Assembly: GCA_947630245.1 (NCBI GenBank)
Contig: CANRGR010000001.1
Coordinates: forward strand, 11,175 to 75,174
DNA length: 64,000 nt
DNA from: an uncultured Clostridia bacterium
GTDB lineage: Bacteria; Bacillota; Clostridia; Christensenellales; Borkfalkiaceae
Direction of reading: 5' to 3'
Numbering within the stretch: position 1 is the stretch's first letter; every line of letters begins with the position of its first letter. Position numbers and translations under genes: made by a program. This document shows, piece by piece, positions 9,041 through 59,870 of this stretch. The notes under the pieces are model-generated. The model made no database searches. It saw only the letters and a program-made list of their open reading frames with translations, and was not told the origin of the DNA.

Positions 9041-9070
9041 TCAACGCCGTCTTTTTTCACGCCTGTTTGC

Positions 9071-9279
9071 GCCGTCATTCCTCTGTTCTTCCCTGTCATT
9101 CCCCTGTTCTTTCCTGTCATTCCGAACCCCCGAAGGGGGTGAGAGAATCCCCTTGTTCAAAGCGAACTTCGTATCAGGGGATACACTCCTCCCTCGCTCC
9201 GCTCGGTCGTCGGTATGACAGTGGTGTGCGGAACTCGCTCCGCTCGGTCGTCGGTATGACAGTGGTGCGCGGTATGACA
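9071..9279. repeat. intergenic repeat array R2
   Basis: Same modules as R1: GTCATTCC variants 9074-9120, full hairpin module 9113-9152, GGGGATACACTC, and three TATGACA units. Confidence 0.85.
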
Positions 9280-9418
9280 ATTTACGATGTGATAACAGCC
9301 GCAAGGGGGTGCGGGTGTTATGACATCGGGGGGCTTGCGCCCTCCAATGCAACTCTCCGATCCGCCGCATCCCTCATCCCTGTCCGGCGGATCAAAGAGT
9401 TTATGTTTTCAGAATTGA

Positions 9419-9889: not shown

Positions 9890-9974
9890 AGTTTCATTCT
9901 CCTTATAAAATCATGATTTTATTTCTACCGCCTACGGGATGAATAGGCGTTCGAAACCTTGTTTAATGGGGCCC

Positions 9975-10427
9975 CCCCTCGCTACGCTCGGTATGACGGC
10001 GGGGGCTCCCGCTTGGCGCCCCTCGCAGGGGAGCTCCGCCCGCAGGGCGGTGAGGGGTTTCTGAAACCCTTTCGGCTCACTCCGTTCGCCACTTCCCCTA
10101 TAAGGGGCAGCAAGGGTGCGGACTGCGTATCAGGGGATACACTCCTCCCTCGCTCCGCTCGGTCGTCGGTATGACAACGGGGTGCGGACTGCGCTTTCCT
10201 GTCATTCCGAACCCCCGAAGGGGGTGAGAGAATCCCCTTGTTCAAAGCGGACTTCGTATCAGGGGATACACTCGCTACGCTCGGTATGACAGTGGGGTGC
10301 GGACTTCGTATCAGGGGATACACTCCTCCCTCGCTTCGCTCGGTCGTCGGTATGACAGTGGGGCGCGGACTGCGTATCAGGGGATACACTCGGGCTCCGC
10401 CCTCGGTATGACAACGCGGGTGCGAGG
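9975..10427. repeat. intergenic repeat array R3
   Basis: Contains the about 110-bp module GGCTCCCGCTTGGCGCCCCTCGCAGGGGAGCTCCGCCCGCAGGGCGGTGAGGGGTTTCTGAAACCC...CCCCTATAAGGGGCAGCAAG (10005-10114), one GTCATTCCGA hairpin module (10198-10237) and four GGGGATACACTC/TATGACA units. Confidence 0.9.
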
Positions 10428-10428
10428 A

Positions 10429-11649: not shown

Positions 11650-11686
11650 ATACCCTCCTTTTCGTTATTTTTTCGAATTTTGTTCG

Positions 11687-12736: not shown

Positions 12737-12775
12737 AATGTTTTACTCTCTCCTCATAAACGATATTTTTCGGTC

Positions 12776-17263: not shown

Positions 17264-17294
17264 ACTCCTTCCATGCAAGGATCCACGGATCCGC

Positions 17295-17657
17295 TCAACC
17301 CGCGAGACCGTCCGCAAATTGCGCGATCGCGGCAACGGTGCGCTCGTAGTCCGCGCGCACGGCGGGCAGATATTCGGCATAGCCGTCGAGACTTCCGCCG
17401 CGGAGCGATTCCGTCAACGCCGTCGCCGACTTTTCAAGCAACGTAAAACTCAGATTCTGGCACATTCCCTTGATGGTATGCGCCGCACGGAATGCCTCTT
17501 GCGCATTTCCCTCTTCGAGCGAACGCAAAAGCAGTTCATAGCTTCCGTCCGCAGGGAATTTGAGCACAAATTTTTGCACGAGTCTCTCGCTGCGCAACCG
17601 ACCGATCACTGCGTCGTAATCCCCGCCGAGCGCCCGATAACATTCCGTAAGCGTCAT
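17295..17657 (-). CDS. Hpt (histidine phosphotransfer) domain protein
   Basis: Start at the ATG at 17657 (MTLTECY) with an AGAGGTG RBS. AAHTIKGMCQNL is the Hpt phospho-His motif; about 120-aa helical protein. Confidence 0.8.
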   Translation of the reverse strand: MTLTECYRALGGDYDAVIGRLRSERLVQKFVLKFPADGSYELLLRSLEEGNAQEAFRAAHTIKGMCQNLSFTLLEKSATALTESLRGGSLDGYAEYLPAVRADYERTVAAIAQFADGLAG

Positions 17658-17679: not shown

Positions 17680-19764
17680 TCAATCAACCGTTTTGGGAGA
17701 ATCGGGCAGATCCGCGTCCTTCAACGCGGCGTCGTCCTCCATAGATTCGTCATAGAACCGGTACCGCGACCGTCCCTGCTTCTTTGCGGCATAGAGCGCG
17801 ATGTCCGCCTTGCGGAACAGTCCCTTGTACTCCTCGTCCGCGGAGCTCTTTTCGCAGATTCCCATGCTCACCGTGAGCGCAAAATCCCCCACCGCGCCGC
17901 AGATCGCTCCGAACACACGCGCGATGATGGGATGGATGTCGGTATCGTACTCAAAGACGATGAGAAATTCGTCGCCGCCGATGCGCGCGCAGAGATCCCC
18001 TGCCCGCGTGCCGTGAATGAGGCGGTCCGCCACGACGCGGAGCACCCTGTCTCCGAAGAGATGACCGTAGGTGTCGTTCGCATTCTTGAAGAAATCAATG
18101 TCGAACACGGCGACGGCATATTTATGCGCGGGATAATTCGCAAGTTTGCGGTCGATTTCCTCGCCGACGCCGTTGCGGTTCAGAAGTCCCGTGAGCGGAT
18201 CGCGGATGGAGCTCTCCTTCAAAGACGCCAGCTCGTTGTGCAGTTCATGCACGTCCATCAGTTTTCCGATGGCGCTCGTGATCCGCGGCTCGATGTCGTC
18301 CGACCAGATCGCGCGCACGATGACGCGGTACCAGCGCAGTTCGCCGCCGATGGGAAGCTCGCATTCGTAGCGGAATTCGGGGTCTTGCGGCGACGTTTTC
18401 CGGAAAAATTGTATGATTCCTTCGAACCACGTCTTTCCGAGCTGTTCGCGGAGCCGAAGATCCTCGGCGGGGTGCAGAAGCTCGGTCTCGACGCCGAACT
18501 TTTTCGCTCCCGACGGCGAAAGTTTGAGAAGATCGTCGTCGACAAGGTATTCGAATTGGACCTCTTCGGTCAATTCGGCATAGAAATTGAATTTCATCCG
18601 CTCGTAATCGAGCAGTTTCAACGTGCGTTCGGACGCGCTGACGCCCTTTGCGTGATGCACCGCCTCCGCATAGTTGCGGATTTCGCGCCGCGCCGCGTTC
18701 GCCTGTGCGTCGTGCGACAGCTCGTCGCGGATGCGGTCGAATTCGTCCGACAGGCATTCGAGAAGGAGCGGGTTGAACGTCCCGCACTTTCCCGCAAGGA
18801 TCATCTCCTTCGCCTCTTCGGGCGGAAGCGGCGGTTTGTAGACCCGTTCGCTGGTGAGCGCGTCATAGACGTCCGCAAGCGCGACGATCTGGGCGGAAAT
18901 GGGGATTTCGTCCCCCTTCAATCCGTCGGGGTAACCCCTCCCGTCCCAACGCTCGTGATGCCAACGGCAGATCTCATAGGCATGCTGCACAAGCGGATTG
19001 TCCTTATGGGCGGAGAGCCCTTCGAGCATATTCGCCCCGATCATGCTGTGGGTTTTCATAACGGCGAACTCCTCATCTGTGAGTTTGCCGGGTTTATTGA
19101 GAATTTTATCGTCGATCCCGATCTTGCCGATGTCATGCAGGGCGGACGCCTTTGCGATGACGGAGATATCGCGGTCGGTCAGCGGATAGCGGTCCGTCTT
19201 GCGGACCAGTTTGCGAAGCAGAAAGTCGGTGATCGTGCGGACATGCAGGATATGCAGTCCGCTCTCGCCGTTGCGGAATTCGACGATGTGGCTCAGAATG
19301 TCCACCATCATGCTGCTGTCGCGCTCGTTCTCGTCGATCTGCTGTTCGATGATCCCGAGAAGCTGGCGCTGTTTCACATAGAGGAAGATCGTATTGAGCA
19401 CGCGGCGATGGACGATGGAGGCGTCGAACGGGCGCATGATGAAGTCCGTCGCGCCGAGTGAGTATGCCCTCTCGATCTGATCGGACGCCGTCTCCGCGGA
19501 GACCATGATCACGGGAAGATCTTCGATGAGACGGGTGCGGTTCATCTCCGAGAGCACGTCGAAACCGTCTTTCTTGGGCATTACGATGTCGAGCAGAACG
19601 AGAGAGAAGGTTTTCGCGCTGCGGTCAAGGATCGCAAGCGCCGCTTCGCCGTCCTCCGCTTCCTCGATGTCGAACTCATCCGCCAACATGTCCGCGAGAA
19701 TGGAACGGTTCATCTCGGAATCGTCTACGATCAGTATTTTTTCTCTCCCCTTCCCCTTCTGCAT
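17680..19764 (-). CDS. response regulator with HD-GYP phosphodiesterase and GGDEF diguanylate cyclase domains
   Basis: REC (ILIVDDSE...LLDIVMPKKDG), HD-GYP (ALHDIGK...HHERWDGRGYPDGL), a middle PAS-like region, and GGDEF (RAGDLCARIGGDEFLIV, i.e. RxxD I-site five residues before an intact GGDEF). Confidence 0.85.
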   Translation of the reverse strand: MQKGKGREKILIVDDSEMNRSILADMLADEFDIEEAEDGEAALAILDRSAKTFSLVLLDIVMPKKDGFDVLSEMNRTRLIEDLPVIMVSAETASDQIERAYSLGATDFIMRPFDASIVHRRVLNTIFLYVKQRQLLGIIEQQIDENERDSSMMVDILSHIVEFRNGESGLHILHVRTITDFLLRKLVRKTDRYPLTDRDISVIAKASALHDIGKIGIDDKILNKPGKLTDEEFAVMKTHSMIGANMLEGLSAHKDNPLVQHAYEICRWHHERWDGRGYPDGLKGDEIPISAQIVALADVYDALTSERVYKPPLPPEEAKEMILAGKCGTFNPLLLECLSDEFDRIRDELSHDAQANAARREIRNYAEAVHHAKGVSASERTLKLLDYERMKFNFYAELTEEVQFEYLVDDDLLKLSPSGAKKFGVETELLHPAEDLRLREQLGKTWFEGIIQFFRKTSPQDPEFRYECELPIGGELRWYRVIVRAIWSDDIEPRITSAIGKLMDVHELHNELASLKESSIRDPLTGLLNRNGVGEEIDRKLANYPAHKYAVAVFDIDFFKNANDTYGHLFGDRVLRVVADRLIHGTRAGDLCARIGGDEFLIVFEYDTDIHPIIARVFGAICGAVGDFALTVSMGICEKSSADEEYKGLFRKADIALYAAKKQGRSRYRFYDESMEDDAALKDADLPDSPKTVD

Positions 19765-21767: not shown

Positions 21768-23060
21768 CTATTCCTCGGACAGGCGGGGAAATCCCTTGAT
21801 CGCCCCGGCAATATCGTCCCCCGCGCCCACGCGTTGCAGAAGTTTCCACCACGCGCTGCGCGCCTCCGCCCAGTGGGGCGTGATCTGATAATAGTCCCCG
21901 AGATAGCGGCTGAAAGACGCATATTCGGTCATGAGCTCGTCGTTTTCGTAGGGATCGCGCTCCATCGTACGCACGGGCAGATAGGAGGAAAGCGTCACCG
22001 CCGCCGAATAACTGTCGCCGTTGATGAAACGGATAAATTCTTTCGCCGCCGCGATGCGGTCGTCGTCGCCGTTGTCAAAGATGCCGAATCCCCAGATGCC
22101 GCCTTGCAGGGAAGGTTCCCCCTCGCCCGTCGGAAACGCCATCGGCAGAATGTCGAAATCAATGTTGGGATTGGTGACCGTCTGCGTGACTTCCGCGGCG
22201 ACGTTCCAACAGAACGCCATCGCCATTTCCTTGTCGCAGAACGCGATAATCTCATCGGAGCCGACAAACGTCGGGTCGAACCGGATCCCCTCCGTCTCTT
22301 TCAGAAGGCGGAGCGCCGCGATATTTTCGGGGGAATCCACGGTGTAGACCGTGTGCTGCGGGTCGGTAAAGCTGCCGCCGCAGAGATTTGTGACGAGCGC
22401 GCGCGTGCCCTGGTCGCCGCCCTGCCCGCCGCAGTAGACGACCGCGACGTCCTTGTCGAGCCCCTGCTCCTCATAATAGCTACGGATCGCTCCGACCGCC
22501 TTCACGAAATTTTCCGTCGTCCAGGTGTGGGTCGTCTCGTCGAGATACTTCAACGCCCCTGCCTCTTCGAACAGATCGCGGTTGATTGCCATGCAATGGG
22601 TCGTCATGCAGAGCGGATAGATGAAGTAGTCGCCCTTTCCGTCGTGGCATGCCTCCGCGACGTTCCGCCGGATCGACGACGCCGCGTCCTCCTTCCAGAG
22701 GTCGTTGAGATCTGCCATCAGACCGCGCGCACCCCAGGTTGCGACGAGGCGCTCGGGACCTTCGAGTACGAGATCGGGCGCGGTGCCCTCCTCGATCGCG
22801 CTCTCGATTTCTCCGTCCCCCGTGGAGTAATCCACGCATTTCACCGTGACGCGGATCTCGGGATGGATCTGGCGGAACGCCGTGAGGAAGGGGGCGATGG
22901 TACTGCTCTTGTCCCATCCCCCCACGGGATACGTCCAAAGGGAGATCTCCACTTCCGTGGGCTCTTCCGTCCCGCTTTGACCGGGACCGTCCCCGGCGGG
23001 AGAACACGCCGCGCCGCACAGCAACAGAAGTCCGGCGATGATACATGCGAATTTTTTCAT
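21768..23060 (-). CDS. extracellular solute-binding lipoprotein (family-1, sugar-type), orphan (SBP2)
   Basis: Signal peptide MKKFACIIAGLLLLCGAAC; 430 aa with sugar-SBP-like composition. Start lies 5 nt after the HK2 stop. No permease or ATPase genes adjacent. Confidence 0.8.
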   Translation of the reverse strand: MKKFACIIAGLLLLCGAACSPAGDGPGQSGTEEPTEVEISLWTYPVGGWDKSSTIAPFLTAFRQIHPEIRVTVKCVDYSTGDGEIESAIEEGTAPDLVLEGPERLVATWGARGLMADLNDLWKEDAASSIRRNVAEACHDGKGDYFIYPLCMTTHCMAINRDLFEEAGALKYLDETTHTWTTENFVKAVGAIRSYYEEQGLDKDVAVVYCGGQGGDQGTRALVTNLCGGSFTDPQHTVYTVDSPENIAALRLLKETEGIRFDPTFVGSDEIIAFCDKEMAMAFCWNVAAEVTQTVTNPNIDFDILPMAFPTGEGEPSLQGGIWGFGIFDNGDDDRIAAAKEFIRFINGDSYSAAVTLSSYLPVRTMERDPYENDELMTEYASFSRYLGDYYQITPHWAEARSAWWKLLQRVGAGDDIAGAIKGFPRLSEE

Positions 23061-23065
23061 TTTCT

Positions 23066-25228
23066 CTATTTTCCCTCTTCGAAATATTCTTTCAGAAGTT
23101 TGCAGACAAGCGCCATATCAATCGGTTTTGCCGTATGCGCATTCATGCCGCACGCAAGACAGCGGGAGACGTCGTCCGAAAAGGCGTCTGCGCTCATGGC
23201 GATGATGGGAACCGTCTTTGCGTCGGGACGGTCCATCGCGCGGATCGCCTCCGTCGCCTCATAGCCGGACATGACGGGCATGCGGATATCCATAAAGATC
23301 ACATCGTAATAGCCGACGGGAGACGCTGCGAACAGATCGGCGCACAGTTTTCCGTTCTCCGCCGATTCGACGATGAGCCCGACTTCCGAGAACAGCTCCT
23401 CCGCAATCTCGCGGTTGAGTTCGTTGTCCTCGGCGAGAAGAACGCGCTTCCCGCCGAAATCCGCCGCCTCTTCCTCGGGGGAGAGAGCAAGCTCTCCGGA
23501 GCGCTCAAAATCGAGCGTGACGCGGAATTCCGTGCCCTGTCCGGGCGCGCTGTCGAATTCGATCTCGCCGTGCATCGAGTCGACGATATATTTCGTGATC
23601 GCCATTCCGAGCCCCGATCCCTCGATTTGATGGACCCGTCCGCTGTCCTCGCGGGCAAACGCGTCGAATACCTGCTTTTGGAAGTTCTCCGTCATGCCGA
23701 TGCCCGTGTCCTTCACGCGAAAGACGACCCGCACGAAATTCTCCCCGCGCGGGGAATCCTCCTCCCGGCAGACGAGCAGGATCGATCCCTCCTCGGGCGT
23801 GAATTTCACCGCGTTGCCGAGCAGGTTGAGCAGAATCTGGTTGAGCCGCACGCCGTCGCAACGGACATTTTCGACGGTCAGCGCGTCGATCTCGGTTTCG
23901 AAGTTCTGACCCTTTGCACGGGTCTGCGGCTGGATGATGCCGACGACGTTCCCGAGCGTCTCGCGAAGGGAGACCGTCTCCTCGTGCAGTTCGAGTTTTC
24001 CGCTCTCGATCTTGGACATGTCGAGAATATCGTTGATGAGCCCGAGCAGATGACGGCTCGACATGGCGATCTTGTCGAGACAGTTTTTCACCTGTTCCTC
24101 GTTTCCGACATTGCTGCGCGCGATCGCGGTCATGCCGACAATGCCGTTCATGGGCGTGCGGATGTCGTGGCTCATATTGGACAGAAATTCGCTCTTCGCC
24201 CGATTGGCATGCTCCGCCTCTTTGCGCATCTGTTCCAATGCGCGCATTTGACTGCGGGTGAGACGGTAATAAAAGACGAACACGACGAGGAGCGCAATCA
24301 GAATGACGAGACAGCTGAGAACTGCCGCCAGGCTCCACGACTGCCCGAGGGCGTTGACCGTCGTATTGAGCGGTCCGTAGGGCAGGAACAGCAAAAGATA
24401 CCAATCCGAATAGGGCAGCGCCGTCTCGTAGGAAAACCGCCGCTCGCCGTCGAGCGTAAACTCGACCGAAAACTCCCTGCCGTCCTCCATCGCGCTTTGC
24501 AGTTCTTCGAGATATACTTCCTTTTCGAGTTCTTCTCCGTCCTTGCGGATCGCGCCGTAGCGGCTGCGGACGCGGTCGAAAAAATTTGCCTCATCGCTCT
24601 CGATTCCGCCGCGGAGAATGATCGTCCCGTCCCCGTCGACGATGAAATAATAGATGGACATGCTCGTGAGGTCCACCGAGAGCGCGTCGCTGATGTAGGA
24701 GATGGGACGGGTTGCGACGAGCGCGACGCTCGTTTGTCCGTCCGACATGGGATAGGCGGCGGGGACCCCCATCACGACGAAACGCTCGCCATAAGAATCG
24801 CTCCCGCTCGACATTGTCTCCCCGCCCGAGACGAGAATGTCCAGAAAGTATTCCTCGCGGTCGATCGAGAGCGTACTGCCGTACAGCATATCAATGGAAC
24901 CGTCGGCGGCGATCAGCGCAAGACGGTCGAACCCGCGGTTGCGGGCGTGCGACCGCAGCGCCGTGTGCAGCGCCGCGGGTTCGAGTTTGCTCTCGGGCGG
25001 AACGGCGTCGATGATTGCGCTGACCTGCGAAAGCCTGAGTTCGAAAGTCGTCCCGAAATGAGCGGCGGACTGTTTGCTCATGTCCGCCATATAAATAGAG
25101 CCGAGTTTGCCGATCGCATCCGCGCCTCGTTTGTTCATGACATATGCCATGAACAGAAAAACGGCGACGCACAGAACCGAAATACAGACGATGCTGACGA
25201 GCAAAAAACGGGCTGTTTTGTTTTTCAT
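23066..25228 (-). CDS. hybrid sensor histidine kinase with one receiver domain (HK2)
   Basis: Start at the ATG at 25228 (MKNKTARF). Architecture: TM, extracytoplasmic region, TM, H-box [11 protein letters not shown], HATPase (GSGLGMAI), REC ([13 protein letters not shown]). Confidence 0.9.
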
Positions 25229-25413
25229 GGAACCCCCCGTATCTCTCCGCCGTCCGACGATTGTGTCCGGACGGCACGGAAAATCCGTGATCGGATAAAA
25301 CCACGGATCCTCATTTGCAGATACAGCTATTCTATCATTATCCGAAATCATTTGTCAATAAAAAACATGAAATTTGTTGAAAAACCGCTCATTTTGTCCC
25401 GCAAAATCCTCTC

Positions 25414-31000: not shown

Positions 31001-32113
31001 CTATTCCCCGATGAAATCCATGAGGATGCGGTTCTGCACATAGAGATATTCGTCGAGAAACTTCGTACGGTCCCCGTCCTCTTCGAAATAAGCGCGGTTT
31101 TTTGCATACGGTACGGCAAAATCGCTCTTCCAATCGCTCCCGAACGCCTCCCGGTAGCGCGCCGCGGAGATCCCGTCCGACGTCCTGAGCGCAAGCATCA
31201 CAAACTCGGACTTTGCGTCCTTCCCCTCCACTTTCTCGTTTTCGACGACGGGCAGAAATCCCGAGAGAATGCACTTCATGTACTCGTCGAGATCGAACGT
31301 GTTGGTAAATCTGCGTCCGAAGAAGAAGGAGCTCGCCGAAACGCCGACGCCGATGTACTCCCCCCGCCGCCAATAGTTGAGATTGTGGCGGCTGCGGAAT
31401 CCCTCTCTTGCGAAATTGCTGACTTCATACCGCTCGTATCCCTCCTTCCGAAGGAGCTGACAGGCGTAATCGTACAGCTCCCGCACTTCGTCGCCGTCGG
31501 GCAGTTCCCCGTTGAGATAATCGGTGTAGATGGGCGTGCCGTCCTCGGGCGTGAGCGCGTACATGGAGATATGGCTCGCGCCGCTCCCCGCCGCGATCGC
31601 AATCGTCTTTCGAAGGTCCTCTTTGGTCTGCCCTTTGAGCCCGAGCATGACGTCCGCCGAGAAATTCTCCCCTTTCAGAAGGGACGTGCAGTAGAGATAG
31701 TCCCTGACGTTATGAATGCGCCCGAGTTCTTCGAGCTGGCTGTCGATCGCCGTCTGCAAGCCGACCGAAAAGCGGTTGATTCCCGCGCGCTTATAGATTG
31801 CGATCTTCTTTTCGTTGACCGTCCCGGGGTTCATCTCGATCGTGATCTCGGGGTCTTTGGAGAGACGGAAGCACTTCTTGATCTGCTTCATCGCGCCATA
31901 GATGTAATCGGGATCAATGACGGAGGGCGTTCCCCCGCCGAAATAGACGGTGTCGAAACAAACGTCCCCGAGCTCCTTTCCCCTGAGTTCGAGCTCCTTG
32001 AAAAGACACGCCATGTACGCTTCGGCAAAATTGAGGCGGTTGGGGAAGGACGTAAAATCGCAGTATCTGCATTTTTGTCTGCAAAACGGAATGTGAAGAT
32101 AAATTCCCGGCAA
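31001..32113 (-). CDS. hemW: radical SAM heme chaperone HemW (HemN-like)
   Basis: YLHIPFCRQKCRYCDF (CxxxCxxC) at the N-terminus; 370 aa. Confidence 0.85.
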   Translation of the reverse strand: MPGIYLHIPFCRQKCRYCDFTSFPNRLNFAEAYMACLFKELELRGKELGDVCFDTVYFGGGTPSVIDPDYIYGAMKQIKKCFRLSKDPEITIEMNPGTVNEKKIAIYKRAGINRFSVGLQTAIDSQLEELGRIHNVRDYLYCTSLLKGENFSADVMLGLKGQTKEDLRKTIAIAAGSGASHISMYALTPEDGTPIYTDYLNGELPDGDEVRELYDYACQLLRKEGYERYEVSNFAREGFRSRHNLNYWRRGEYIGVGVSASSFFFGRRFTNTFDLDEYMKCILSGFLPVVENEKVEGKDAKSEFVMLALRTSDGISAARYREAFGSDWKSDFAVPYAKNRAYFEEDGDRTKFLDEYLYVQNRILMDFIGE

Positions 32114-32114
32114 A

Positions 32115-32423
32115 TCAGTTTCCCTCCCAGAGATATTTGTTAAGATCGACGTATCCGCTTTCGACTTCCACGCCCTCGGCGCGGAGGAGCCTTGCCTGCA
32201 TGTCCGATCCGCCGAAGGCGAAGGCGGGCGCGAGCCTCCCCTCGCGGTTGACGACCCTGTGACAGGGCACGACGACGGGCGTCGGGTTGCGGTGGAGGGC
32301 GTTCCCGACGAGACGGGACGCCCGAGGTCTCCCGATCGCCCGCGCGATCATGCCGTAGGTGACGACCTTCCCCCTCGGCACGCTCTTTACATATTCATAG
32401 ACAGATTGATCGAAATTGTTCAT
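32115..32423 (-). CDS. MGMT-family protein (methylated-DNA-protein-cysteine methyltransferase DNA-binding/active-site domain only)
   Basis: Start at the ATG at 32423 (MNNFDQS). VPCHRVVN active-site motif; 102 aa. Confidence 0.75.
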   Translation of the reverse strand: MNNFDQSVYEYVKSVPRGKVVTYGMIARAIGRPRASRLVGNALHRNPTPVVVPCHRVVNREGRLAPAFAFGGSDMQARLLRAEGVEVESGYVDLNKYLWEGN

Positions 32424-32540
32424 AAGATTTCTTCCTTCCGCCGTCAGATCGCGCTGCGGCGGCAACGCACCCGGTTTAACAATCCATCGAGCGATGCTTT
32501 TCGGCACTGTTCAAGGGGATCATCTCGGGCTTGTCTCTCG

Positions 32541-33115
32541 GTACGACAGCGGAGCGAACTGCGTATGAGGGGATACACTCGACTCCGCGCTTTGCGCTCC
32601 GCTCGGTATGACAACGGAGAGAGGGCGCGTGTCGGTATGACAGCGAAGGCTCTCACTTGGCGCCCCTCGGGGTCCCCGCAAAAAGACGTAGTATTTTTGC
32701 GGGGTGGTATAGGGGAGCTCCGCCCGTAGGGCGGTGAGGGGTTTCTGAAACCCTTTTGAAACCCTTTCGGCTCACTCCGTTCGCCACTCTCTCATGTGGG
32801 TAGAACCCCGCATTCGGTCACCGTTCGCGCGGCAAATGCGCTCACTCATGTCGCATTGCGCCAACAGTTATCAACTGTTGGCAGGATGCAATGCTCCACC
32901 CTTTCAGGGGCAGCAAGGGGGAGGGAGCAAAGAATTTCGTGAACATCTCTGCGCGGAGCAGGGTTCCCCTGCGGTAGCGCCCACAATTTGCGCGATACTT
33001 CGCGCTTGTTGTCCGATGAAACGAAGAAGAGGTTCGGCAAGTTAAGGCGCGAGAGCACTTTTCCTCGAACGATTCTTTTCGACGCAAGCGAAGCGAGCAA
33101 GCAAAGAATCGTTCG
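32541..33115. repeat. intergenic repeat array R4
   Basis: Holds GGGGATACACTC, TATGACA units, the 110-bp module interrupted by an extra hairpin module (32649-32790), and CCCACAATTTGCGCGATACTTCGCGCTTGTTGTCCGATGAAACGAAG...GTTAAGGCGCGAGAGCAC, which is shared with R5 and R6. Confidence 0.9.
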
Positions 33116-33121
33116 AAACCC

Positions 33122-34930
33122 TCAATCTTTATTCGTCTTCAAAATCTGCATGAATACTTCGCTCGGGACTTCGACCGTACCAATCTGCCGCATCCGCTTT
33201 TTGCCCTCTTTTTGCTTTTCGAGGAGTTTCTTCTTGCGCGTGATGTCGCCGCCGTAGCACTTGGCGAGGACGTCTTTCCGCACCGCCTTCACCGTCTCGC
33301 GGGCGATGATCTTTCCGCCGATCGCCGCCTGCACGGGAATCTCGAACAGCTGCCGCGGGATGGCGTCCTTCAAGTTCTCGCACAGAATCCGCCCTCTTCC
33401 GTACGCTCTGTCCTCGTGCACGATGATCGAGAGCGCGTCGCAGATCTCCCCGTTCAGAAGAATATCCATGCGGACGAGCTTGCTCTTTTCGTAGCCGACG
33501 AGCTCGTAGTCGAAACTCGCATAGCCGCGGGTGCGGGATTTGAGCCCGTCGAAAAAGTCATAGACGATCTCATTGAGCGGCAGACGGTATTCGAGTTTGA
33601 CCCGCCGCGCGTCGAGATAGGTCATGTCCTTGAACACTCCCCGCTTGTCCTGACAGAGCTCCATGATCGACCCCACATAGTCGGGCGGGGTAAAGATCTC
33701 CGCCTTGACGATCGGCTCTTCCATGTAGTCGATGTCCGAGGGGGGCGGAAGGTGGGAGGGATTGTCCACATAAAAACTCGTGCCGTCCGTCTTGTGGACG
33801 AGATAGGAGACGGAGGGCGCGGTCGTGATGATGTCGAGATTGAATTCCCGCTCGATGCGCTCCTGAATGATCTCCATGTGCAGAAGTCCCAGAAATCCGC
33901 AGCGGAAACCGAATCCGAGCGCAACGGAATTATCCGGTTCGAACACGAGGGACGCATCGTTGAGTTTGAGTTTCAGGATCGCCTCTTTGAGGTCGAGAAA
34001 TCTGGATCCGTCGAGGGGATAGATCCCGCAAAAGACGACGGGCTGCACTTTTTTATAGCCGGGAAGCGGCTCCGCCGCGGGGCGGTCCGCGCTCGTGACG
34101 GTGTCGCCCACGGCGACGTCCTCAATGGACTTGATACTCGCGGCGATATAGCCGACTTCGCCCGCCAGAAGCCGATCCTTCGGTTGCAGGGAGGGCGCAA
34201 ATGCGCCGACTTCGGTGACATCATAGGTCTTTTCGGAGAGGAACGCCCGGATTTTGTCCCCCACCTTGACCTTCCCGTCCATGATCCGCACAAAGAGAAT
34301 GACGCCCTTGTAATTGTCGTAATAGCTGTCGAAGATGAGAGCTTTGAGGGGCGCCTCGTCGTCGCCGTCGGGGGGAGGAATGAGCTTGACGACCGCCTCC
34401 AAGATGTCGCGGATGTTCGTCCCCTCCTTTGCGGACACACAGGGACAGCCCTCGCAGTCCAGCCCGATGACTTCCTCGATCTCCTGCTTCGCCTCGTCGA
34501 CGCGGGCGGATTGAAGGTCGATTTTATTGATGACGGGCACGATTTCGAGATCGTTTTCGAGGGCGAGATAGACGTTGGCGAGGGTCTGCGCCTCCACGCC
34601 CTGCGTCGCGTCCACAACGAGAAGCGCGCCCTCGCAGGCGGCAAGGGAGCGGGAGACTTCATAGGTGAAATCCACATGCCCGGGCGTGTCGATGAGGTTG
34701 AATTCGTACTCCTGTCCGTCGAGGGCGGTATAGTACATTCTCACGGGCGCAAGTTTGATCGTAATCCCGCGCTCGCGCTCGATGTCCATGCTGTCGAGAA
34801 GCTGTTCCTCCATATCGCGCTTCGAGACCTGTCCCGTCAGTTCCATGATGCGGTCGGCGATCGTGCTCTTGCCGTGGTCGATGTGAGCGATAATGCAAAA
34901 ATTTCTTAAATTCGGATTTGCCTTTGCCAT
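33122..34930 (-). CDS. lepA: translation elongation factor 4 (LepA)
   Basis: [30 protein letters not shown], plus the LepA-specific C-terminal domain; 602 aa. Confidence 0.95.
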
Positions 34931-35023
34931 TGCGTTCCTTTCCTGTTTTCCCCATTATAACTTTTTTCCGAAAATTTTGCAACCGCTATTGCGATTTTCT
35001 TTTGCGCGTGATACACTGTTCTC

Positions 35024-35755
35024 ATGAATTTTTTACGAACAATCCCTATTGCGCACCGCGGACTGCACGGGAAAGACGTCCCCGAAAACAGCCTCGCCGC
35101 CTTTTTGCGGGCGGCGGAAGCGGGGTATGCCGTGGAGACGGACGTCCGTCTCTCCAAAGACGGGACGCTCGTCGTCTTTCATGACGATACCCTCACCCGC
35201 ATGACGGGCGATCCCCGCGCCGTGTCCGCCTGCACGCTGCGCGAACTCAAAGAGCTCTCCCTTTGCGGGACGAAGGAAAAAATCCCGACGTTTGCCGAAT
35301 TTCTCGCCGCGCTCGGGGAGGTTCCCCTGCTCCTCGAAATCAAGAACATGCCGCAGGTCAAGGGCGGGCCGCTTGCGGAGCGGATCGCCGCGGAATTTGC
35401 CCGCTCGGGATACCGCGGCGAATATGCGGTTCAATCCTTCCAGCCGCTGTACGTCCGCGCCTACCGTACCCTGCTCCCGCACATTCCCTGCGGAGTACTC
35501 TCGGCGGGGCATCTCCCCGCCGACGGCTTTTCGCCTCCGTTTGCGCGGATCAAGCGGCGGATCGTCACCCATATGAGCCTGAACGCTTGGGTAAAACCCG
35601 ATTTTATCAGCGTCGCCTTCGGCGATCCGCCCCGCGGGACGGAGAAATTCAAAGGCGTGCGGCTTTCGTGGACGGTCCGCTCCGAGCAGGACGAAAAAAG
35701 GGCCCGCGCGCTTGCGGACAACATCATTTTCGAGGGCTACCGCCCGAAACTTTGA
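35024..35755 (+). CDS. glycerophosphodiester phosphodiesterase family protein
   Basis: IAHRGLHG..PENSLAAF...AVETDVRLSKDGTLVVFHDDTL is the GDPD catalytic motif pattern. Confidence 0.8.
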   Translation: MNFLRTIPIAHRGLHGKDVPENSLAAFLRAAEAGYAVETDVRLSKDGTLVVFHDDTLTRMTGDPRAVSACTLRELKELSLCGTKEKIPTFAEFLAALGEVPLLLEIKNMPQVKGGPLAERIAAEFARSGYRGEYAVQSFQPLYVRAYRTLLPHIPCGVLSAGHLPADGFSPPFARIKRRIVTHMSLNAWVKPDFISVAFGDPPRGTEKFKGVRLSWTVRSEQDEKRARALADNIIFEGYRPKL

Positions 35756-53695: not shown

Positions 53696-56600
53696 TCAAT
53701 CGAGAGGACCGTATTTGCTCTCGAACTCTTCCTTCGTGAGGAGCACCGCCCTTGCGCGCGCCTTCCCGTCGAAGGGGGAGACATACCCCATCGTCTCCAT
53801 CCATTCCATGATCTTGCCCGCGTGGTTGTACCCCACCGAGCATCTGCGCTGAATGAGCGAGATGGACGCCGATCCGAGCTTGACGACCATGCCGAGCGCG
53901 CGGATATATTCGGGCGTGATCGCGCCGCCGCCATCCTCGTCGTCATCGTCGTAATTCTCCTCCGCCTCCTCGTTGCGGTTGATGTAATCGGTGACGTCGG
54001 GATCGAAATACGCCTCGTTGTGCGTCTTGATCTCCTCGACGATCGCCTGAACTTCCTCCGACGATATGAACGCGCACTGCACGCGGGAACAGTAGAACAT
54101 TCCCTCCGACTTATAGAGCATATCGCCGTTGCCGAGCAGTTTCTCCGCGCCCGATTCGTCGAGAATGGTACGGGAGTCCACTTCCTGAATGACGCGGAAC
54201 GCCATACGGGTGGGCAAATTCCCCTTGATGACGCCCGTGATGACGTCCACCGAGGGACGCTGGGTTGCGATGATGAGATGGATTCCCGCGGCGCGCGCCT
54301 TCTGCGCGATGCGCTGGATGCGCTCCTCGATGTCCTTCTTGGCGACGGACATGAGATCGGCGAGCTCGTCCACGACGATGACGATCTTGGGAAGTTTCTG
54401 ATCGCCTTCCGAGAGCGTGTCGTTATATTCGTCGAGATTGCGCACGACCGTGCCCGAGCGCGTCGTCTGCTCGAAGAGATCGAACCTGCGCTCCATCTCC
54501 TTGATCGCCCAGTTAAGCGCCATCACCGCCTTCTGTGCGTCCGCGACGATCTCGTTGATCATGAGATGAGGAAGTCCGTCGTAAACGGTGAATTCCACCT
54601 TCTTGGGGTCGATGAGAATGAGCCTCAAATCCTCGGGGGAATATTTGCAGATCAGGCTGATGAGAATCGCGTTCAGACAGACCGATTTCCCCGAGCCCGT
54701 CGCGCCTGCGATGAGCATATGCTTCATCTTGGTGATGTTGCCGCACACATTTCTGCCCTCGATGTCCTTCCCGATGGCAAACATGAGCGCGTCCCGCGTG
54801 CCGCCGAGATATTCGTTCGCCTGCATGACGGAGCGGAGCCCGACCGTCGCGCGCACGGAATTGGGCACTTCGATGGAGATGAGCCCGGATTCGTTGTTGG
54901 CATACATATTCACGCCGTCGCGGGCATGCAGCCGCATGGCGATCTCCCCGCCCCTGCGGGTGACCGTGTTCAGGGAAATGTTGTGCGGAATATCGAGATC
55001 GTAGCGCGTCACGGAAGGACCCGTCGTAACCCGCATGATCTCCGCGTCCACGCGGAATCCCGCAAGCGTCTCGATGATGATCTCCGAATTCCGCTCGACC
55101 TCCTCGGGCGGGACGGCGATCGTATCGTCGTACTGGCGGAACAGCGCCATCGAAGGCTGCTGGTAGGGACGGTAGACATGTCTCTCGGGACGGGGCGCCG
55201 CTTTGGACTTTTTCTCCGCAGGGCGCGGCGCGCTCTCCTCCGGGGGAGCGTCGTCATCAAAGAGATTCGCATCCGATCTCCGCAATCTGCCGATCGCACG
55301 GCTGTCCCCGAGATCTTCCTCCTCCGCGCTCTCTCTTCCGCGCGGCTCTTCAAACGTCTCTCTTCCGCGCGGTTCCTCGAACGATTCACTCTCCTGCGGC
55401 TCTTCGAAGGTCTCCCTTCCCCGCGGTTCCTCGAAGGTCTCCCTTCCCCGCGGTTCCTCGAACGTATTCTTTCTGCGCGGCGTATAGTCGTCCAATCCGC
55501 GGAGACCGCCGTATTCGGGGGGATCGTCGATCTTGTCGAGGAAATTCTTTTCTTCCCCCCTTCCGAACTCTCTTCCGAAGGAGGGATCAATCCTCGTGCG
55601 CTCCGCCCTCGGGCGGGAGAAGAGACTGCGGAACTCATCGTGCAGTTCATCCTTTTTCTCTGCGGGCTCCGCGGAGACGGGAGGATGCTCGCTCTTGACG
55701 GGCTCGGGTTCGGGGCTGACGGGCGCGCGTTTCACCCGCTCGGGCTCCTCCGTCCGCACATCTTCCGCGGCGGACGGTTCGTCGAAAATATTCGGCGCGG
55801 ACGTGAACTCCTCCTCAAAGGGAACGTCTTTGGCATAGCGGTCATGCGGCTCCTCCGGGGGCGTGATCGGCGCGCGATAGGAGGGCTTTGCGGGATAGTT
55901 GATATCCTCCGCCCGCACGGTATAGCCGTCGGGACGGGAGTCCGGTCTCTGTTCCACGATCTTGCGCGGCATCGGCTCGCGGGTGAGTTCCGCCTGCGCG
56001 CCGTAACGGTCGGTGTAGCTCGGCGCCGACCCGCCGCTCTGCCGGGGCTCCGTCCGCTTTTCGAAACTTGCGGGAATGCCGTAATCGGTTCTGCGCGCGG
56101 GAGAATCGCTCGGTTCGATGCTGCTCCTGCGCACACGGGAATTGAAATAGGAATCCTGGTTGTAAATCAAATTGCGCTTGAAATCCTGCGCGGGAGACGA
56201 ATACAGAATATCCATTCCGGAATACCCGCCGAACAATCCCGCGTCGTCCGCGGGCGCGTTGTACTGCGGCTCCGACGGCTGTTCGTACCGCGGTTGTTCA
56301 TATCTCGGCTGTTCATACCGCGGCTGTTCGTATTGAGGCTGTTCGTATTGAGGCTGTTCATAGCGCGGTTGTTCATATTGAGGCTGTTCGCGCACGGGCG
56401 CCTCTGCAGGGGGGGCGGTGCGGTAACGGACGGTACGGGGCGTCGGTGCCGCGTCTGCCTCGGAGACGTTCTTGCCGCCCGTTTTCTTCTCCTTTGCGGG
56501 TTTCTCCGCGCGCGGACCGCGGCGGGAGAACGCCAACGCAAAAAACGGTTTCAAGAGGAAGAATGCGCAGACCGCGAGGAGCAGGGAGAACAGAACGTAC

Positions 56601-57076
56601 GCTCCCACGGGCGAGAGAATCGCCTGCACGGGGTAGACGAGGAGCCCGAGAAAGACCCCGCCGGGCGTGGAAGCCGAGGCGGACGTCTCCGCCGCGTTCC
56701 AGCAGTGCGACATATACGCCCCGAATCCGCCGCCGAGGGAGGCGGACGTCAGGGCGAGATGGACGATGAGAAAGACGCACACCGTCGCCGCCGAGCCCTT
56801 CAAAACCCAGCGCCACGGGAGTAATTTCCTTCCCGAGATCATGACGACGGAGAGATAGAGGCAGAGGACGAGCGCGGGATAGACGAAAAATCCGAGCGCG
56901 CCGAAAAGAAACGCCGTGATCGACGTGCCGATCTCGCCGAGTATGTAATTCCCTATGATTGAAATGACGAGCAGGATGACGCTGAACAACAGCAACGTCA
57001 TGCCGAAGGTTTCCCTCGTGATGACGGAGCCGACGCCCGGGCTTTTCTTGTCCTCCCCGCGACCGTAACCGTTCAA
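53696..57076 (-). CDS. ftsK: DNA translocase FtsK/SpoIIIE with a long repetitive linker
   Basis: TTG start at 57076 preceded by GGAGG. N-terminal four or so TM segments, an about 450-aa low-complexity linker, the motor domain (Walker A GATGSGKSV) and a C-terminal gamma winged helix. Confidence 0.9.
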   Translation of the reverse strand: MNGYGRGEDKKSPGVGSVITRETFGMTLLLFSVILLVISIIGNYILGEIGTSITAFLFGALGFFVYPALVLCLYLSVVMISGRKLLPWRWVLKGSAATVCVFLIVHLALTSASLGGGFGAYMSHCWNAAETSASASTPGGVFLGLLVYPVQAILSPVGAYVLFSLLLAVCAFFLLKPFFALAFSRRGPRAEKPAKEKKTGGKNVSEADAAPTPRTVRYRTAPPAEAPVREQPQYEQPRYEQPQYEQPQYEQPRYEQPRYEQPRYEQPSEPQYNAPADDAGLFGGYSGMDILYSSPAQDFKRNLIYNQDSYFNSRVRRSSIEPSDSPARRTDYGIPASFEKRTEPRQSGGSAPSYTDRYGAQAELTREPMPRKIVEQRPDSRPDGYTVRAEDINYPAKPSYRAPITPPEEPHDRYAKDVPFEEEFTSAPNIFDEPSAAEDVRTEEPERVKRAPVSPEPEPVKSEHPPVSAEPAEKKDELHDEFRSLFSRPRAERTRIDPSFGREFGRGEEKNFLDKIDDPPEYGGLRGLDDYTPRRKNTFEEPRGRETFEEPRGRETFEEPQESESFEEPRGRETFEEPRGRESAEEEDLGDSRAIGRLRRSDANLFDDDAPPEESAPRPAEKKSKAAPRPERHVYRPYQQPSMALFRQYDDTIAVPPEEVERNSEIIIETLAGFRVDAEIMRVTTGPSVTRYDLDIPHNISLNTVTRRGGEIAMRLHARDGVNMYANNESGLISIEVPNSVRATVGLRSVMQANEYLGGTRDALMFAIGKDIEGRNVCGNITKMKHMLIAGATGSGKSVCLNAILISLICKYSPEDLRLILIDPKKVEFTVYDGLPHLMINEIVADAQKAVMALNWAIKEMERRFDLFEQTTRSGTVVRNLDEYNDTLSEGDQKLPKIVIVVDELADLMSVAKKDIEERIQRIAQKARAAGIHLIIATQRPSVDVITGVIKGNLPTRMAFRVIQEVDSRTILDESGAEKLLGNGDMLYKSEGMFYCSRVQCAFISSEEVQAIVEEIKTHNEAYFDPDVTDYINRNEEAEENYDDDDEDGGGAITPEYIRALGMVVKLGSASISLIQRRCSVGYNHAGKIMEWMETMGYVSPFDGKARARAVLLTKEEFESKYGPLD
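55329..55463. repeat. 27-bp in-frame tandem repeat inside ftsK
   Basis: Five or so units encoding FEEPRGRET variants. Confidence 0.85.
56266..56392. repeat. 15-bp in-frame tandem repeat inside ftsK
   Basis: Eight or so units encoding YEQP(Q/R). Confidence 0.85.
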
Positions 57077-57157: not shown

Positions 57158-57246
57158 CGATATTGACATGGATTTTTTGCGGGAAATAAAAAAATATTTG
57201 TAGACGGGACATGCTATCGCGCGAAAAATGTTGCTCCGCAGGCAGA

Positions 57247-57286
57247 GAGACCGCCCCGACGGACTTTCCTCCGCCGGGGCGGTCTC
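57247..57286 (-). terminator. hairpin after the spo0A-like gene
   Basis: 12-bp stem GAGACCGCCCCG / CGGGGCGGTCTC, about 20 nt past the stop. No strong T-run. Confidence 0.55.
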
Positions 57287-57308: not shown

Positions 57309-58070
57309 TTATACCATGCTTTCGAGGATGAGCTTGTCCGCCACCAGCGCGATAAACTCGCTGTTGGTCGGCTTTTCGGTGCCGATATAGACCCGTGCGC
57401 CGAAGATTGCGTTCACGGCGTCGATCCTTCCGCGGTTCCATGCCACCTCAATCGCATGACGGATCGCACGTTCCACTTTGCTCGCCGTCGTGTGAAATTT
57501 TTCGCCGATGATGGGATACAGTCCCTTTGTGACGTTGTTGATGATGTGAGGATCCTCCACCGCCATCTTGATCCCCTCGCGGAGGTATCCGTACCCCTTG
57601 ATGTGGGGCGGAATCCCGATCGAGATGAAGATGCCCGAGATGCGTTCGTCGAGAGAATTGGCGCGTCTGCGCTCCACGCTTTCGCGGACGGGCGGTTCCT
57701 CCTCGCCCACAACTTCCGCCACGCGGTCCGCCACGACGGACGCCGAAACGGGTTTCATCAGATAGTACTTTGCGCCGAGCGAGATCGCGCGGTTGATGAT
57801 CTTATCGTCCGAAAAGTTCCCCATGACGATAAAATCCGCCTTGCGCTGTTCTTTGCGCGCCTCCTCCATGACGGTGAAACCGTCGAGATTCCGCAAAAAG
57901 AGACTGAGCACGACGATCGACGGACCGGCGGACTTCATCAGCTCGATCCCCTCCGCGCCGTCGTCGCTCACGCCGCAGACATTGAACCCGTTTCTCGCCG
58001 AGAGCTCTTTTCTCAATTCTTCCGCAAATGCTTCGTTGCTTTCCAAAATCAAAATCTGTACTTGTTTCAT
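57309..58070 (-). CDS. spo0A: Spo0A-like transcription factor with a degenerate (pseudo-)receiver domain
   Basis: The C-terminal domain is unmistakably Spo0A_C (IGIPPHIKGYGYLREGI...TTASKVERAIRHAIEVAW...KPTNSEFIALVADKL). The N-terminal receiver fold has E10-S11, S56 and G in place of D-D, D and T. Start at the ATG at 58070. Confidence 0.85.
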   Translation of the reverse strand: MKQVQILILESNEAFAEELRKELSARNGFNVCGVSDDGAEGIELMKSAGPSIVVLSLFLRNLDGFTVMEEARKEQRKADFIVMGNFSDDKIINRAISLGAKYYLMKPVSASVVADRVAEVVGEEEPPVRESVERRRANSLDERISGIFISIGIPPHIKGYGYLREGIKMAVEDPHIINNVTKGLYPIIGEKFHTTASKVERAIRHAIEVAWNRGRIDAVNAIFGARVYIGTEKPTNSEFIALVADKLILESMV

Positions 58071-58292
58071 ATTCCGTTCCCCCCGCTTCATTTCATTACG
58101 GTATCATTATAGTACCTCCGACCGGAAATGTAAAGCAATTTTTGTACAAAATTCATCTATTTTTTTACGAAATTCATAGAATTATGTACAGAATTGTCGA
58201 ATGATGACGAATCTCTCGTCACAGTTCCGAAATTGACTGAAAATAAAGAAAATTTCCTTCGTTTCGAAGGAAATTTGTCTGTTTTCGGAAAA

Positions 58293-59870
58293 TTACTCGC
58301 TCACCGAATCGAGATACTCGTCGAACGTGATGCGTTTATCGAACACTTTCGTGCCGTCGAGGACGATGATGCGGTTGCAGACGGTGTTCATGAGCTCCTG
58401 GTCGTGGGACGTGAGCAACATGCAGCCCTTGAAGGAGGTCAGCCCGTTGTTGAGGGATGTGATGGATTCGAGATCGAGGTGGTTCGTGGGCTCGTCGAAG
58501 ATGAGGAAATTCCCCCCTTCGAGCATCATTTTGGCGAGCATACAGCGCACCTTTTCGCCGCCCGAGAGGACCTTCGCCTCTTTGAGCGCCTCCTCGCCCG
58601 AGAAGAGCATGCGCCCGAGCCAGCCGCGCAGGTACTCCTCATAGTGGTCTTTGGAAAAGCGGGAGAGCCACTGCACGAGCGTCAGATCGCACCCGTCGAA
58701 AAATTCGCCGTTGTCCACGGGGAAATAGGAATAGTTGATCGTCTTTCCCCACTTCACCGTCCCCTCGTCGGGCTGCTGTTTGCCGGTGAGAATGTCATAG
58801 AGCATGGTGACCGACGTGGATTTATCGCCGAGAATGCCGATCTTGTCCCCCTTCTGCACAGTGAATGAGACGTCCTCGAAAAATCCCTTCTTTGTGAGCC
58901 CCTCTACCATGAGGATATCGTTTCCGATCTCCCGTTCGTACTTGAATTCGATAAAGGGATACTTTCGGAGGGAGGGTTTGAAGTCGGAGATCGTCAGTTT
59001 TTCGAGCTCCTTCTTTCTCGCCGTCGCCTGCCGAGACTTGGAGGCGTTCGCCGCAAAGCGCGCGATGAACTCTTTGAGCTCCGCGGCGCGCTGTTCCGCC
59101 TTCTTGTTCGCGTCGCGCTGCTGCCGCGCCATGAGTTGGGACGTCTGATACCAGAAATCGTAATTCCCGAGATAGAGTTCGATCTTGCCGAAATCCACGT
59201 CGCAGATGTGCGTGCAGACCTTGTTGAGAAAGTGGCGATTGTGCGAGACGATGATGATCGTATTTTCGAAGTCGAGAAGGTAATTTTCGAGCCAACGCAC
59301 CGTTTTGAGGTCGAGGTTGTTGGTCGGCTCGTCTAGGAGCAGGACGTCGGGGTTGCCGAAGAGCGCCTGCGCAAGCAGTACCTTCACCTTCTGTTTGCCG
59401 TCGAGTTCCCCCATCATCATGGAATGATATTCCGAGGGAATGTCCAGCTCGTTGAGAAGGGTCTGCGCTTCGCTCTCCGCCTCCCAGCCGCCGAGTTCGG
59501 CAAACTCGCTTTCGAGCTCGGAAGCGCGGACGCCGTCCTCCTCGGTAAAGTCGGTATGGGCATAGAGCGCGTCCTTCTCGTCCATGATCTCGACGAGCCG
59601 CTTGTGCCCGAGCATCACCGTGCGGAGCACCGTCTCGAAGTCGTACTTATTTTGGTTTTGCGCGAGAACGGACATGCGCTCGTTCTTGTCGAGCGTGACG
59701 TCCCCCTTGTTCGGCTCGATCTCCCCGGAGAGCACTTTGAGGAACGTGGATTTTCCCGCGCCGTTCGCGCCGATGATCCCATAGCAGTTGCCTTTCGTAA
59801 ATTTGAGATTGACTTCCTGAAATAATTTCTTGCTTCCGTATTGCAGACTGACGTTGTTGACCTGTAACAT
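58293..59870 (-). CDS. ABC-F family ATPase (YbiT-like)
   Basis: Two ABC cassettes without TM domains. NBD1 Walker A is GANGAGKST; the inter-domain linker is FIARFAANASKSRQATARKKELEKL; NBD2 has signature LSGGEK and Walker B FLIFDEPTNHLD, but its Walker A is GILGDKSTS. Confidence 0.85.
   Translation of the reverse strand: MLQVNNVSLQYGSKKLFQEVNLKFTKGNCYGIIGANGAGKSTFLKVLSGEIEPNKGDVTLDKNERMSVLAQNQNKYDFETVLRTVMLGHKRLVEIMDEKDALYAHTDFTEEDGVRASELESEFAELGGWEAESEAQTLLNELDIPSEYHSMMMGELDGKQKVKVLLAQALFGNPDVLLLDEPTNNLDLKTVRWLENYLLDFENTIIIVSHNRHFLNKVCTHICDVDFGKIELYLGNYDFWYQTSQLMARQQRDANKKAEQRAAELKEFIARFAANASKSRQATARKKELEKLTISDFKPSLRKYPFIEFKYEREIGNDILMVEGLTKKGFFEDVSFTVQKGDKIGILGDKSTSVTMLYDILTGKQQPDEGTVKWGKTINYSYFPVDNGEFFDGCDLTLVQWLSRFSKDHYEEYLRGWLGRMLFSGEEALKEAKVLSGGEKVRCMLAKMMLEGGNFLIFDEPTNHLDLESITSLNNGLTSFKGCMLLTSHDQELMNTVCNRIIVLDGTKVFDKRITFDEYLDSVSE

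Follow-up and report, generated by a model that had tools for sequence, protein, structure and literature searches.

The spo0A gene located at positions 57309-58070 on the minus strand of a 64,000-nucleotide stretch of contig CANRGR010000001.1 (assembly GCA_947630245.1, positions 11,175 to 75,174; hereafter the window), from an uncultured Clostridia bacterium of the Borkfalkiaceae, codes for a full-length Spo0A, with a receiver fold and a Spo0A_C domain, whose receiver has lost its phospho-acceptor aspartate. Three catalytic positions are gone, as the acceptor Asp is replaced by Ser, the second of the two metal-binding acidic residues (DD2) likewise by Ser, and the conserved Thr by Gly. On the strength of this residue signature, which is that of a pseudo-receiver, we read the protein as a phosphorylation-independent Spo0A that probably still binds DNA and would no longer depend on His-Asp phosphotransfer.

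The window Spo0A and its domains

The open reading frame (ORF) extends from 57309 to 58091 on the minus strand and has an in-frame ATG at 58091 that is probably not used. The coding sequence of 253 amino acids plus stop (57309-58070, minus strand) begins at the second ATG of the ORF, at 58070, a start that is backed by homologs and is preceded by a G-rich ribosome-binding stretch. The product matches Spo0A_C (PF08769) over the full length of the model (residues 144-247, 8e-39) and Response_reg (PF00072) at residues 6-116 (2.8e-14), and it scores 248.6 bits against the NCBIfam model TIGR02875 spore_0_A (equivalog cutoff 200) over model positions 2-259 of 262. The receiver occupies residues 1-122 (57705-58070, minus strand), as delimited by PF00072, the AlphaFold2 fold and Foldseek. 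It is joined by a variable linker of low model confidence (residues 123-138, 57657-57704, minus strand) to the DNA-binding and trans-activation domain (residues 139-253, 57312-57656, minus strand). In phmmer comparisons the latter was 55-59% identical to the crystallised Spo0A C-domains (PDB 1fc3 and 1lq1), with Foldseek template-modelling (TM) scores of 0.88-0.94, so that its earlier assignment to Spo0A_C, made from the sequence alone, is borne out. Alignment to 1lq1 and 1fc3 places the recognition helix in the segment TTASKVERAIRHAIEVAW (57438-57491, minus strand), which is the same as in B. subtilis Spo0A except for one Lys/Arg exchange and is invariant among the close relatives described below.

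A receiver without its acceptor aspartate

The receiver was aligned by phmmer with that of B. subtilis Spo0A (PDB 9phz), and the alignment was free of gaps around the key sites. At the positions of D10-D11, D56, T84-A85 and K106 of B. subtilis the window protein has E10-S11, S56, G84-N85 and K106. LILESNE pairs with CVADDNR, exchanging DD for ES; VVLSLFLRNLDG pairs with LVLDIIMPHLDG, placing Ser opposite D56; VMGNF pairs with MLTAF, with Gly-Asn at T84-A85; and LMKPV pairs with ILKPF, with K106 kept. The E10-S11 codons lie at 58038-58043, the AGT codon of Ser56 at 57903-57905 and the G84-N85 codons, which replace Thr and the residue after it (T and T+1), at 57816-57821, all on the minus strand. 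The stretch Y103-V108 (57747-57764, minus strand) retains the aromatic switch residue Y103 and K106-P107, with Val instead of Phe two residues after the Lys (K+2). Besides this last exchange, the secondary substitutions include Ala to Asn at T+1 and Pro to Arg four residues after the acceptor (D+4).

An AlphaFold2 model built on 36 homologs, with a predicted local distance difference test score (pLDDT) of about 90 in the receiver, gave the canonical (beta-alpha)5 arrangement, with beta1 at residues 4-9, beta3 at 52-56, beta4 at 79-84 and beta5 at 100-105. As judged from the strand ends of this model, E10, S56, G84 and K106 therefore occupy the places of the catalytic residues. Foldseek likewise matched the receiver to the Spo0A receiver structures 5wq0 and 1qmp with TM scores of 0.86-0.90. 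No Asp or Glu stands at the end of beta3 in the model beside the mutated site. An alternative active-site Asp was thus rejected on the model, in which S56 ends beta3 without an acidic neighbour there. Among the individual candidates, D63 is an ordinary conserved Asp-Gly opening alpha3, found also in B. subtilis, and D36 and D37 are not conserved; all three were rejected as acceptors.

These results bear on several claims of an earlier note that had been made from the letters of the sequence. The exchanges D10-D11 to E10-S11, D56 to S56 and T84 to Gly, together with the AGT codon at 57903-57905, hold in both the gap-free alignment and the structure model. It had also been claimed that the acceptor Asp and the acidic pocket were absent and that only the Lys was retained. 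The acceptor is indeed gone and K106 is kept, but the pocket is only partly de-acidified, since its first acidic residue (DD1) persists as Glu, and the aromatic switch Y103 is retained as well. The further claim that such a protein cannot be activated by the canonical phosphorelay or by orphan kinases is supported by the sequence, by the structure model and by the conservation across the clade.

The window Spo0A therefore does not carry the canonical set of Asp56, D10-D11, Thr or Ser84 and Lys106, although the fold is present. It is an aspartate-less receiver (ALR), with a PF00072 match and a (beta-alpha)5 fold, a replaced acceptor Asp and other catalytic residues missing. In a survey of such receivers (PMC4395418), the acceptor was Ser in 15%, the first acidic triad was usually kept and the second usually lost, and the Lys and the Tyr or Phe were usually kept. 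The window protein fits this pattern, as its acidic triad-1, Lys and Tyr are kept, triad-2 and the Thr are lost, and the acceptor position is Ser. A T+1 residue that is no longer small and the loss of the Pro at D+4 are changes typical of pseudo-receivers, and a change of the Phe at K+2 has been associated with active-biased conformations (PMC12632262).

Conservation and selection within the clade

The best 120 database homologs of the window Spo0A are 73-99% identical to it; Ser56 is present in 115 of them, Glu10 and Gly84 in all 120, and Lys106 is invariant. A genome scan covering one genome per GTDB species gave its best 80 loci in 80 different assemblies, one in each, and 76 of these carry Ser56. 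The remaining four, all of which fall inside the Ser56 clade, have Asn (L041 and L049), Gly (L037) or Asp (L036). The 80 genomes are metagenome-assembled genomes (MAGs) from the gut of rabbits, chickens and mice; some bear the name Candidatus Gallimonas, and others are entered as uncultured Christensenellaceae or Clostridia. Assemblies of the Ser56 clade include GCA_949041715.1 (CARPIU01), CANQMN01, CANPZD01 and CALWCE01, as well as the Candidatus Gallimonas MAGs CAJFLU01, DXBB01 and CAJFRT01. The alignment with orthologs from related taxa that the earlier note had proposed thus finds the Ser56 state to be clade-wide. A sequencing error or a strain-specific mutation was rejected, because the same residue is common to 115 of 120 homologs and 76 of 80 species genomes.

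At the codon level, 95 sequences had AGC (57), AGT (26), AAT (6), GAY (5) or GGG (1) at position 56, and within the clade Ser56 is kept by AGC and AGT in 83 of 87 sequences. Residues E10, N12, G84, Y103, K106 and P107 are invariant in the clade and N85 nearly so, and S11 varies among Ser, Gly, Ala and Asn. The entropy of the pocket positions is 0-0.6 (0.34 for S56) against a receiver mean of 1.05. The most conserved face of the receiver is beta4-alpha4-beta5, with alpha1, alpha2 and alpha5 variable. Pairwise Nei-Gojobori ratios of non-synonymous to synonymous divergence (dN/dS) were lowest in the DNA-binding domain, at approximately 0.08, as compared with 0.23 in the receiver and 0.49 in the linker. 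Purifying selection acts on the receiver, whose former pocket (E10, N12, S56, G84, N85 and K106) is nearly invariant.

Orthology and path of change

The gene directly upstream of spo0A codes for an ABC-F ATPase (abcF, 58293-59870, minus strand) and serves as a marker of positional orthology; it has this place in most clade loci in which the upstream flank was captured. The same abcF-spo0A arrangement was found in a sister lineage with Asn56 (signature ESNSNK; GC content 49%) and in a more distant lineage with Asp56 and E10-R11 (ERDSEK; GC 37-39%), and the promoter region is common to the three. Because of this adjacency and the shared promoter architecture, the window gene is a positional ortholog of the spo0A of both sister lineages. 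The ABC-F ATPase itself is 83-93% identical across the lineages (L003-L098) and Spo0A 52-86%, with their adjacency constant.

In a neighbour-joining tree the Asp lineage (GAY) lies outside, the Asn lineage (AAT) is sister and the Ser clade (AGY) is inside, so that the most economical order would be Asp to Asn to Ser by single-base steps. The metal-binding Asp would have been lost first, as suggested by E10-R11 together with Asp56 in lineages still carrying the spoIIIA operon; the change of Asp56 to Asn would have come next, and that of Asn to Ser would have come last, together with the replacement of Ser or Thr84 by Gly. The operon in question, spoIIIAA-AH, was found shortly downstream of polA-coaE in the Asp56/E10-R11 lineages and in the related locus L101, in which spo0A was not captured; in such lineages with a captured spo0A, polA-coaE comes after it. 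Since these lineages carry the spoIIIA operon, sporulation genes do occur beside an eroded Spo0A pocket in the wider group. When the loci L081-L088, L098 and L101 were compared with the window and L001-L080, genomic GC content was seen to increase in the same order, from 37-42% in lineages that have Asp56, or spoIIIA beside polA-coaE, through 49% in the lineage with Asn56 to 53-61% in the clade with Ser56.

The spo0A promoter and its 0A box

A terminator-like hairpin (58250-58276, minus strand) ends abcF, and spo0A therefore has a promoter of its own. A sigma-A-type promoter, TTTACA-17 nt-TATAAT, with 11 of 12 matches (58106-58134, minus strand), is conserved throughout the clade. A perfect 0A box, TGTCGAA (58195-58201, plus strand; TTCGACA on the gene strand), lies about 60 nt upstream of its -35 element and 131 nt upstream of the start codon. 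Of 83 clade loci, 46 have a perfect box within this same zone of 50 nt and 31 more have one with a single mismatch, as compared with 0.55 and 10.5 in shuffles, and a box at the conserved position upstream of the promoter is found in both sister clades too. Across the 64-kb window 0A boxes were not significantly enriched (18, with 13.6 expected), and the one upstream of spo0A is the only one of the 18 placed before a promoter. Taken with the near-identical recognition helix, the sequence data suggest that 0A-box binding by the window Spo0A is probably intact, and the conserved upstream box would fit autoregulation as in canonical Spo0A.

Conserved TTTGTACAAAA repeats are also present upstream of the promoter (58138-58150 and 58185-58190). 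In the loci L001-L098, which include Ser56, Asn56 and Asp56 lineages, two or three copies of this palindromic element lie between the 0A box and the -35 element. The copies agree with the 0A box in 5 of its 7 positions; they could be weak Spo0A sites or the sites of another regulator. A second terminator-like hairpin lies downstream of spo0A (57234-57247, minus strand).

Other aspartate-less Spo0A proteins

Loss of the acceptor is not confined to this clade. About 940 Spo0A-like cluster representatives match at E <= 1e-30. We aligned the 122 Spo0A-like cluster representatives nearest the window protein, a set biased to its relatives, and found a canonical pocket in 53, Asp56 kept with another catalytic residue missing in 40, and Asp56 absent in 29. 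On a rough tree of these representatives about 18 changes between Asp and non-Asp occur at position 56. Many other Spo0A-like representatives from uncultured samples (P0121-P0270) are without Asp56, having Ser, Gly, Glu, Asn, Thr or Tyr there, or without the second acidic residue. Several are long and were matched in two to four stretches, best to Spo0A_C, as if the domain were repeated.

An aspartate-less Spo0A was not described in the literature searched, including the sporulation-gene surveys of Galperin; the ALR survey cites Spo0A as a canonical example only, and the review of pseudo-receivers does not carry the name. The window protein is a pseudo-receiver version of a well-known regulator.

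Probable mode of action

Under the reading that we prefer, the window Spo0A would bind 0A boxes and control transcription, including that of its own gene, without Asp phosphorylation. The receiver would serve as a fixed module for dimerisation or architecture, probably in an active-like form. The level of active regulator would be set by transcription, through autoregulation and growth-phase control of the promoter, possibly together with a protein partner, and not by a kinase or phosphorelay. Many pseudo-receiver proteins have been described as constitutive dimers governed by their abundance or by partners (PMC12632262). How bacterial pseudo-receivers work is termed "a mystery" in a recent review. 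The earlier note had offered three alternatives, namely a protein that is constitutively active or otherwise controlled, one that is modified at Ser56, and a decoy paralog. The first would best fit the sequence data, the second is weakened and the third is disfavoured.

Several points weigh against this reading. Ser56 is conserved more strongly than a small residue that is simply tolerated would have to be, leaving room for a specific function. Locus L036 (match 2520-3278), which is nested in the Ser56 clade, has Asp56 (GAT) together with E10, S11, G84 and N85, which may represent a reversion or else a variant that is tolerated. With dS near saturation (about 1), the dN/dS values hold only approximately. 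Finally, the whole upstream region of about 130 nt is conserved throughout, though synonymous sites are saturated, so that the 0A box may be kept for reasons other than Spo0A binding.

In one alternative, Ser56 or another receiver residue would undergo reversible phosphorylation by a Ser/Thr kinase of the Hanks type, or some other modification; phospho-Ser56, held by K106, would stand in for phospho-Asp, and the regulator would stay gated by a signal through a different class of enzyme. The maintenance of Ser56 by both AGC and AGT, its low entropy in comparison with the receiver mean, and the invariance of E10 and of K106, the phosphoryl contact of canonical receivers, would agree with such a switch. 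Other response regulators do undergo Ser/Thr phosphorylation, though it is not known to take place at the Asp position itself. What weakens the case is that some members of the clade have Asn (L041 and L049), Gly (L037) or Asp (L036) at position 56 and that the sister clade has Asn there throughout. Other Asp-less Spo0A representatives have Gly, Glu, Asn, Thr or Tyr there, and neither the window nor the annotated flanks yielded a Ser/Thr kinase gene. The Asn at T+1 is, moreover, expected to hinder access to the site (PMC12632262). We therefore regard a Ser56 switch as unlikely. A broader form of the idea, in which this clade of gut Clostridia still runs a Spo0A-dependent developmental or stationary-phase programme, possibly sporulation, and receives its input at the remodelled pocket through Ser56 phosphorylation, a ligand or a partner, with the Asp-less proteins forming a recurrent class, seems to us slightly less doubtful, but still not probable.

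If a canonical spo0A existed elsewhere in the genome, the present copy might be a decoy or accessory paralog that modulates it, e.g., through heterodimers or competition for 0A boxes. According to Galperin et al., two spo0A paralogs are present in 10 genomes of Clostridiales and three in a further one, and the loss of Asp56 is scattered across the Spo0A-like representatives (about 18 changes), as expected if some of them are paralogs. The window gene, however, shares its abcF-spo0A position and 0A-box promoter with the spo0A of the Asp56 and Asn56 sister lineages, in which no other spo0A was seen, and for this reason a decoy is disfavoured. The 80 best genome matches come from 80 different assemblies, the TIGR02875 equivalog cutoff is passed, and the DNA-binding domain is very strongly constrained (dN/dS 0.08), all of which makes a paralog an improbable explanation. 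Least probable by far is a decaying relic, in which sporulation has been lost, the receiver is eroding and spo0A is drifting towards a pseudogene. The receiver does evolve faster than the DNA-binding domain (0.23 against 0.08), no sporulation genes were found near spo0A among the window ORFs and annotated flanks scanned, and cultured Christensenella species are reported not to form spores. Against this, more than 80 species keep the ORF intact and at full length although synonymous divergence is close to saturation, the altered pocket residues hardly vary, and the promoter and 0A box are conserved. With dN/dS well below 1 in both domains, the relic is largely refuted by the selection data.

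Sporulation genes and other genes of the window

Whether the clade sporulates was approached through its gene content. Scans of 43 further window ORFs against Pfam or NCBIfam, with E-value cut-offs between 1e-5 and 1e-40, left 12 without any match and gave no sporulation-specific family, and none was seen either in annotated flanks from three further genomes with Ser56. The usual spo0A context and the set of sporulation genes were likewise not seen at this locus in a scan of the 64-kb window. When SpoIIIAA, SpoIIIAB and SpoIIIAC of the sister locus L087 were compared by tblastn with the window and 94 loci (1.5 Mb), only L087 itself was recovered. The best 120 database homologs of SpoIIIAA all have a low- or mid-GC amino-acid composition, none lies on a contig that agrees in length with a Ser56 contig, and the two examined individually come from lineages with a GC content of 37-42% that are related to the Asp56 group; SpoIIIAA orthologs of the Ser56 clade might, however, rank lower than these 120. 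A published classifier scored most Christensenellales MAGs as non-sporulating and some as sporulating, including one of family CAG-74; nothing specific was found in the literature on sporulation in Gallimonas or Christensenellales. These observations lean slightly towards a reduced or lost sporulation programme in which Spo0A was kept as a general regulator.

In B. subtilis and many clostridia a gpr-spoIIP pair precedes lepA. In the window lepA and hemW are present (31001-35755) without this pair, and genes for a GDPD protein and glycogen phosphorylase lie upstream instead. Within the Ser56 clade the order spo0A-ftsK-rimO-pgsA-cinA-recA-nadE is conserved. The downstream neighbour of spo0A, ftsK (53696-57076, minus strand), codes for an FtsK/SpoIIIE-family translocase of 1126 amino acids with a low-complexity linker of about 500 amino acids carrying tandem EQPRY/EQPQY and ETFEEPRGR repeats.

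Signalling genes are found elsewhere in the window. Three hybrid histidine-kinase/receiver genes and a gene for a GGDEF-domain response regulator lie at 144-5185 (plus strand), 14600-17380, 21768-25351 and 17680-19764 (all minus strand). Two of the three hybrid genes adjoin genes for extracellular solute-binding proteins, and none of these hybrid or GGDEF genes resembles an orphan sporulation kinase. A type IV pilus cluster coding for a PilM-like protein, a prepilin peptidase, PilC, PilT and PilB occupies 5283-14470 (minus strand). The segment 43556-45498, which codes for a protein with a zinc ribbon and BspA-type leucine-rich repeats, has a third-position GC of 0.44-0.66 against about 0.77 elsewhere and may be horizontally acquired.

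Significance and comparison with known systems

Spo0A serves as the textbook case of a phosphorelay-gated regulator, and the presence of its gene is widely taken as a genomic marker of sporulation potential. If a Spo0A incapable of carrying an Asp-phosphate is indeed conserved in many species, it would imply either a kinase-free entry into the Spo0A programme or a conserved role outside sporulation. The presence of spo0A in such MAGs, or its annotation as "sporulation transcription factor Spo0A", may then mislead predictions of sporulation in the gut microbiome. The stepwise series of lineages, from the loss of DD2 through Asp to Asn and Asn to Ser, would make it possible to follow, as a natural experiment, the conversion of a receiver into a pseudo-receiver. 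Should input instead have been rewired to the remodelled pocket, the approximately 18 independent losses of Asp56 would mark an unrecognised recurrent class of phosphorelay-independent Spo0A.

The window protein shares with the canonical Spo0A of B. subtilis and C. difficile its two-domain architecture, the recognition helix, the fold of the receiver, K106 and the aromatic switch, and both genes have a 0A box upstream of a promoter of their own. It differs in being without the phospho-acceptor Asp, the metal-binding DD2 and Thr84, and in having Asn at T+1, a residue other than Pro at D+4 and Val at K+2. The canonical gene usually stands in the context spoIVB-spo0A, with recN nearby, whereas the window gene adjoins abcF and ftsK. 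Once inhibition by the receiver is relieved, Spo0A reportedly activates transcription without Asp phosphorylation, as is said of laboratory alleles such as the sad67 deletion and N-terminal truncations. Alleles of the sad67 type are engineered deletions or mutations in a sporulating host, whereas the window Spo0A is a natural protein with a full-length, conserved receiver that carries point substitutions and is found in many species. There is also a likeness to the aspartate-less response regulators, such as HP1043/HsrA, ChxR, actinobacterial GlnR, RitR, FrzS, BldM/WhiI, Rem and CmrT. These have, as does the window Spo0A, the PF00072 fold without its catalytic residues; what sets the latter apart is that its output domain is Spo0A_C.

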